Below are positions 4,484-4,525 of a DNA stretch of 34,663 bases, one piece after another (within the stretch, counting starts at the first letter, position 1; every line of letters starts with the position of its first letter). The stretch is from the UHGV virus genome UHGV-0173140, one strand, 5' to 3'. A program made the translations under genes and the position numbers. The notes under the pieces are model-generated. The model did no database searches and was not told the origin of the DNA. It worked only from the letters and a program-made list of their open reading frames with translations. This DNA is from a virus.

Positions 4484-4525
4484 TTTAAAATAATTCTTGA
4501 CACATTGCAAGCAGTAACATTAACA
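4484..4525 (+). promoter_or_regulatory. conserved promoter copy (TTGACA 4496-4501); opposite strand reads TTGCAA-17-TAAACT (candidate divergent promoter)
   Basis: gtttaaaataattcttgacacattgcaag; the reverse complement gives a -35/-10 pair facing the gene starting at 4453. Confidence 0.5.

Follow-up and report, generated by a model that had tools for sequence, protein, structure and literature searches.

Two loci in a 9NA-like siphophage genome appear to carry a weaker sigma-70 promoter on the opposite strand inside a strong canonical one, a reading to which we assign a probability of roughly 0.55. They lie at 4482-4526 and 31927-31971 of UHGV-0173140, and the window analysed here is this whole stretch of DNA, 34,663 nucleotides long. 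The reverse promoters would drive two non-structural minus-strand gene blocks, one containing a NinH-like gene and the other a helicase-exonuclease-primase block. From the arrangement of promoter elements we infer that transcription starts at the reverse sites and that the two directions compete. Coordinates of the features are collected in Table 1.

Table 1. Predicted promoters, gene blocks and related features, in window coordinates unless a relative is named.
Feature	Position	Strand	Elements and remarks
Forward canonical copy, dUTPase gene block	4484..4526	plus	UP-like TTTAAAATAATTC 4484-4496, TTGACA 4497-4502, cATTGCAA, TAACAT 4521-4526
Site 1, reverse candidate promoter	4482..4510	minus	-35 TTGCAA 4510..4505, 17-nt spacer, -10 TAAACT 4487..4482; predicted start near 4475; -10 to ATG (4453) 28 nt
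Minus-strand block	3334..4453	minus	4151-4453 (phrog_32742), 3700-4239, 3528-3710, 3334-3528 (NinH-like by orthology)
Two-way terminator-like hairpin	7022..7043	both	between portal gene and plus-strand block
Forward canonical copy 1, helicase locus	31929..31971	plus	AAAATAGTTC, TTGACG 31942-31947, cATTGCAA, TAACAT 31966-31971
Site 2, reverse candidate promoter, helicase block	31927..31955	minus	-35 TTGCAA 31955..31950, 17 nt, -10 TAAAAT 31932..31927; -10 to ATG (31895) 31 nt
Second tandem forward canonical promoter	31992..32033	plus	TTGACA-17-TAAAGT; matrix rank 2
DNA helicase gene	30234..31895	minus	phrog_16, E 7e-89
Third TTGCAA-17-(TGg)TAATCT site	30225..30253	minus	32 nt before exonuclease ATG 30192; rank 45
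Site 3, portal copy, reverse candidate of the sequence-only reading	8473..8501	minus	-35 TTGCAA 8501..8496, 17 nt, -10 TAACAC 8478..8473; rank 1430; 67 nt from ATG
Better portal candidate	8443..8471	minus	GTGCAA-17-TAACAT overlapping TGaTATAAC (8453..8445); 37 nt before ATG 8405
Large-terminase candidate	14001..14029	minus	CTGTCA-17-(TGg)TAAACT; 31 nt before ATG 13969; rank 31
Late extended -10 elements	3191-3199, 14001-14009, 8445-8453	minus	in 9NA upstream of gp33, gp37, gp47, gp56
Contigs with the 15-mer AAAATA(A/G)TTCTTGAC			L033, L046, L054, L022, L038, L039, L042, L049, L095

The 6 kb between positions 3000 and 9000 of the window share 96% identity with Escherichia phages KarinMuster_Bas82 and AVIO78A and 83-86% with Salmonella phages 9NA, Sasha and SP069. 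More distant relatives are phages of Klebsiella, Proteus and Morganella, with portal proteins 85% and 60% identical. The gene layout is that of the 9NA-like group, in which virion and replication genes share one strand (minus here) and are broken up by groups of small genes that run the other way. The canonical motif AAAATARTTCTTGAC has 14 matches at two or fewer mismatches in the whole window, against 0.29 expected; one of the matches is degenerate and one additional diverged copy lies at 12172..12157, which gives a count of 13-14. In register the motif reads UP-like tTTAAAATAATTC-TTGACr-rATTrCA, where AAAATAATTC is the UP-like part, and each copy is followed by a variable -10-like hexamer 17-18 nt past the -35 and then by a gene in the same orientation. 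The copies occupy all top ten places in a sigma-70 scan that ranked about 69,000 window positions with a rough matrix, assembled from frequency tables, and on this ground we take the motif to be a strong sigma-70 promoter with a proximal UP-like tract, standard for the 9NA-like group.

Part of the motif is not peculiar to these phages. The 15-mer listed in Table 1 occurs in four to five copies per contig in unrelated, lower-GC IMG/VR viral contigs, followed by TATAAT 17-18 nt later and lacking ATTACA. It looks like a widespread, near-optimal phage promoter design of UP element plus -35, and this part of the motif probably reflects merely near-optimal polymerase contact. The UP-like A/T tract and TTGAC are common to the 9NA-like motif and the multi-copy early promoters of lytic phages; unlike these, the 9NA-like motif has a variable and weaker -10, an extra conserved rATTrCA in the spacer and, at two loci, a putative reverse promoter. 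When viral contigs were scanned with AAAATAATTCTTGAC and CTTGACNCATTGCAA, and metagenome contigs with TTCTTGACNCATTGCAA, the matches listed (at least 120 for the viral and at least 120 for the metagenome contigs) were mostly unrelated sequences and together added one further relative.

On the strand opposite to the motif, TTGCAA is followed 17 bp later by TAAACT at the first locus and by TAAAAT at 31927-31955, in agreement with the sequence-only reading in every base. That reading delimited the first site as 4484-4525, an interval whose bases are correct; the reverse -10 (4487..4482) extends 2 nt beyond it. TTGCAA matches TTGACA at four of six positions, with TTG retained, at sites 1 and 2 and at the portal copy (site 3), and the spacer is 17 bp in all three cases, inside the sigma-70 range of 17 +/- 1 bp. 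The A at position 2 and the T at position 6 that characterize a -10 element are present in TAAACT (4/6) and TAAAAT (5/6); the TAACAC of the portal copy is missing the final T. Summed over both hexamers, site 2 matches the consensus at 9 of 12 positions and passes the threshold of a consensus scanner (9 of 12), and site 1, at 8 of 12, falls below it. The pattern TTGCAA-N17-TAnnnT is found three times in the window against 0.71 expected, a number reached by 4 of 100 shuffles, and each of these three occurrences stands just upstream of a minus-strand gene. A reverse -10 formed by TGTAAT, the reverse complement of ATTACA, was ruled out by its G at position 2.

In the predicted arrangement the two promoters cross. 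The reverse -35 (4505-4510) would lie inside the forward spacer, 2 bp past the forward -35, and the forward -35 (4497-4502) inside the reverse spacer, which would span both the forward -35 and the UP-like tract and leave the reverse -10 at the upstream edge of that tract. The predicted starts, near 4533 (plus) and 4475 (minus) at the first locus and near 31978 (plus) and 31920 (minus) at the second, are about 58 bp apart. The footprints would then overlap by about 50 bp, and because of this overlap binding is expected to be mutually exclusive, with one polymerase at a time. Overlapping predicted footprints with genes on both sides are what an overlapping divergent pair should present at the sequence level. 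By analogy with characterized bidirectional promoters, the strong forward promoter would limit the weaker reverse one. Such occlusion could also count against a functional reverse promoter on the same DNA.

Both minus-strand blocks call for promoters of their own. Between the upstream portal gene and the 4453 block lie 2.5 kb of genes on the other strand and the hairpin at 7022-7043, at the orthologous place of which terminators are annotated in AVIO78A, so that this block needs its own promoter; the helicase gene heads the replication block on the minus strand and, since there is no minus-strand gene upstream of 31895, this block needs one too. In every lineage tested, sites 1 and 2 are the top sigma-70 candidates on the required strand of their intergenic regions. 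Their matrix scores in the window are 9.6 and 11.1, compared with 6.5-6.7 for the next best in these regions, and their ranks of 39 and 13 among the approximately 69,000 positions fall just under those of the canonical copies (the forward copy at 4484, whose ortholog is included in the AVIO78A annotation, ranks 10). The matrix scan gave no other promoter candidate for the 4453 and 31895 blocks in either intergenic region. Each site is on the correct strand and at a sensible distance before a gene that needs a promoter, the -10 to ATG distances of 28 and 31 nt standing beside 31 nt for the large terminase, 37 for the portal, 32 for the exonuclease and 30 for the head morphogenesis gene.

An alternative that we regard as unlikely is that the reverse hexamers are an idle by-product of the forward motif and that the blocks are expressed otherwise, from unrecognised (for example, phage-factor-dependent) promoters or by late transcription that enters from upstream through antitermination or read-through. 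Most of the reverse hexamer bases are fixed by the forward motif, nTGyAA by ATTrCA and TAAA by TTTA, and only three positions are free, namely the first base of the -35 and the last two of the -10. The by-product explanation is further favoured by matches of no more than 8-9 of 12, by the consensus scanner finding about one promoter-like match per 400 bp in shuffled sequence, by the portal copy, which has TTGCAA at the motif without a usable promoter, and by the late genes, which seem to use other promoter types. At the free positions, the other 12 motif copies have T as the first -35 base in two cases and T at -10 position 6 in four; the chance of both is about 0.056 per copy, and about 0.003 for both of the blocks that are without another promoter candidate. 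The two T's are combined in 2 of the 14 copies, which are exactly sites 1 and 2. An idle by-product also fails to account for the lack of any better candidate on the required strand, in either intergenic region and in any lineage, for the conservation of the free positions across five module types with diverged flanks, or for the consistent spacing to the ATG. It is also opposed by the terminator upstream of the 4453 block and by the early-type character of the helicase and primase genes, whose transcription has to rely on unmodified host polymerase.

The conservation is best followed at the helicase locus, where the variant TTGAC(r)cATTGCAA is present in every lineage found. For the reverse -10, the window has TAAAAT, and TAAACT is found in the remaining E. 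coli-group phages and Salmonella SP-062; 9NA and the Klebsiella-like contigs carry TATGAT, there placed ahead of a small gene (gp69 in 9NA) that comes before the helicase; Morganella Henu15 and Proteus Isfahan carry TAAAGT, and contig L143 carries TAACTT. Variation is confined to -10 positions 3-5, with T1, A2, T6 and the first T of the -35 invariant, and the flanking sequence is unalignable between the five module types; the relatives share ancestry, so conservation counts across lineages are not independent. The module is flipped in Henu15, Isfahan and L143, where the canonical side faces the helicase and the TTGCAA side the divergent gene; in Henu15 the reverse -10 stands 33 nt from the ATG of that gene. 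That both directions appear to be retained whichever way the module points is the strongest argument for a two-way module. In L143 the palindromic TTGCAA could serve as the -35 of both directions (TTGCAA-17-TAAGAT and TTGCAA-17-TAACTT).

The forward side of this locus is duplicated in the window. The tandem canonical copy at 31992-32033 is probably the main promoter for the gene at 32066-32818, and in the E. coli group forward expression at the helicase locus may have passed to it. According to its annotation, 9NA gp69 (L123 43133-43378) starts at 43133, upstream of the promoter module, and the gene overlaps it; a downstream ATG preceded by GGAG, about 30 nt past TATGAT, better fits the predicted reverse promoter, and gp69 is probably annotated too long. 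Further into the replication block, an apparent decayed reverse-complement copy of the canonical motif (TAATCTGcatAGAAatATTTTAAAC) is found downstream of the 30225..30253 site, which sits between the helicase and exonuclease genes, and the 9NA counterpart (L123 ~45025-45085) reads TTGCAG-17-TGgTAATCT-GTTTAGAATTATTTTAAAC. This site may be an internal promoter that arose from an inverted motif copy.

At the 4484 locus the picture is less uniform. The E. coli group and Sasha retain TTGCAA-17-TAAACT, and in 9NA the sequence is TTGTAA-17-TAAACT, where the altered base was already off consensus. The Klebsiella-like contigs lack the original register and have TTGCAA-17-TAATCT displaced by about 23 bp, at a distance of 37 nt from the ATG; TAATCT is here the motif's AGATTA in reverse complement, and TTGCAA overlaps the forward -10. 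The same TTGCAA-17-TAATCT occurs in Proteus Isfahan, where the module is flipped. A reverse promoter-like site overlapping the canonical promoter thus recurs here in a register that is not fixed. This pattern backs the general two-way idea and weakens the specific candidate, and weak promoter-like sites could arise easily in this AT-rich DNA. Between the reverse -10 and the start codon at 4453 sits TCAACGTTAACC (4464-4481), which contains the palindromes AACGTT and GTTAAC and is conserved among the E. coli group, Sasha and 9NA; read on the plus strand, it has a second TTGACA 23 bp upstream of the motif -35.

The proposal that the motif may fire in both directions is supported, with moderate confidence, for 4510..4482 and 31955..31927, which are the best sigma-70 candidates on the required strand and are conserved; its extension to the copy at 8476 as a promoter for the portal gene is not. 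The portal copy lacks the final T of the -10, ranks far down the matrix scan and has a -35 that decays in relatives, with CTGTAA/TAACAC in 9NA and CTGCAA/TAACCC in Klebsiella-like phages. We judged it non-functional, and a better candidate lies between it and the ATG. The block 8443..8471 is conserved in the E. coli, Salmonella and Klebsiella-like groups and is the top candidate in each. It can be read either through TGaTATAAC, which has no final T, or through TAACAT with the -35 GTGCAA. The large-terminase candidate at 14001..14029 is likewise separate from the divergent canonical copy at 14036.

The extended -10 pattern, TGn followed by TAnnnT, is fitted by TGgTAAACT before the large terminase gene and by TGaTATAAT at 3199..3191, and orthologous sites of the extended -10 type are conserved across lineages. 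Window-wide, TGNTAWAAY is not enriched (13 found and 8 expected). TGnTATAAT or TGnTAAACT stands 30-40 nt before the starts of late structural genes, without a good -35. The late structural genes (large terminase, portal and head morphogenesis) appear to use separate, mostly extended -10 promoters nearer to their starts, and these elements may represent a distinct late promoter class.

The G variant of the motif, ATTGCA, was considered as a mark of copies that face a divergent gene, with which it correlates in the window genome and in the Klebsiella-like relatives. As a sign of a reverse promoter it is refuted by CTGCAA with the -10 TAACCC or TAACCG in the Klebsiella-like relatives, and its probable basis is a paralogous subfamily of promoter plus leader, or else a site for a regulator. 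In two Klebsiella-like contigs the terminase- and portal-facing copies (L130 5442/9933 and L134 6025/9933) are identical over more than 45 nt of promoter plus leader (gaattgcagatgcacggttatgctttgaacatgaactgaacagag), which suggests recent copying or recombination between copies within one genome.

The conserved rATTrCA, of which ATTGCAA is a variant, could itself be bound by a regulator, from phage or host, that acts on the forward promoter; its locus-specific conservation would then mean that particular forward promoters are regulated differently. We consider this improbable as a replacement for the reverse promoter, although the two readings are compatible. The element lies just downstream of the -35 (for example at 4503-4509, 6272-6278 and 17603-17609), and at the copies 6256 and 17587 it is extended to a full palindrome, TTACAC-N6-GTGTAA, across the -10; conservation and palindrome together suggest a regulator binding site. 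Nearly every copy has ATTrCA in its spacer, and Proteus Isfahan keeps it in spite of a different UP-like part; recognition by sigma-70 leaves this conservation unexplained. The Klebsiella-like G variant ATTGCAG, moreover, marks late-gene-facing copies that have no reverse promoter. A regulator alone would leave unexplained the co-conserved T at position 6 of the reverse -10, which is outside ATTrCA, as well as the fixed distance of 28-31 nt to the reverse gene and the keeping of both directions in the flipped module. We identified no candidate regulator for ATTrCA, and the match of TTGAC-N4-TGCAA to an FNR- or CRP-like site is too weak for that reading. Still more doubtful is a direction-switching module, in which an ATTrCA-binding protein, phage-encoded or from the host, would silence the strong forward early promoters and free the occluded reverse ones; if true, the replication and NinH blocks would be timed after the earliest genes, and the use of the module in either orientation across genera would reflect a portable two-way switch.

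Under the two-way promoter reading, the arrangement belongs to a long-known kind. Beck and Warren are said to have classed overlapping divergent, or back-to-back, promoter pairs in 1988, and the Tn10 tetA/tetR control region is an example of an overlapping divergent sigma-70 pair. As in such pairs, two predicted sigma-70 promoters on opposite strands share one short intergenic region with a gene block on each side, and their predicted footprints overlap, so that occupancy should be mutually exclusive. Unlike those pairs, the phage reverse promoter would be embedded in a hyperconserved multi-copy promoter motif, each -35 would lie within the spacer of the other promoter, and the phage arrangement is not known to involve a repressor or operator.

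The bidirectional promoters described by Warman, Grainger and colleagues share a common symmetrical -10, with starts 18 (or 10 or 23) bp apart, and in E. coli the two directions of such promoters are seen to compete if one of them is strong (PMC12825309). Common to both arrangements is a short DNA segment that can engage polymerase either way, one binding event excluding the other. In contrast to that class, the phage -10 elements (4521-4526 forward, 4482-4487 reverse) are not shared, lying about 39 bp apart with predicted starts about 58 bp apart, and it is the -35, UP and spacer region that would be shared instead. We therefore assign the predicted phage arrangement to the overlapping divergent sigma-70 pairs and not to the shared -10 class. 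What would be new is the nesting in a hyperconserved multi-copy phage promoter and the conservation in either orientation across five host genera, with prior description being possible.

To our knowledge, the transcription programme of 9NA-like phages is essentially unstudied. Zeng et al. 2019 is reportedly the main comparative paper on the group. Neither the motif nor the promoters are mentioned in the 9NA genome announcement or the AVIO78A paper, and they may have been described elsewhere. The resulting promoter map has three predicted classes, the strong canonical promoters, weak reverse ones nested in two of them, and separate, mostly extended -10 late promoters. Should the reverse promoters prove real, the same DNA would be contested by a strong and a weak promoter, and expression of the replication genes would be coupled to early-promoter activity. 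The map should be useful for annotating and engineering 9NA-like phages and introduces no new principle.

About seven copies of a repeat of approximately 26 nt with the core GCACAACATGCACTA lie at 19504-19829 of the window. They lie within the 460 bp that separate the minus-strand small-terminase gene (start 19383) from the plus-strand gene at 19842, and could be origin iterons or part of the pac region.
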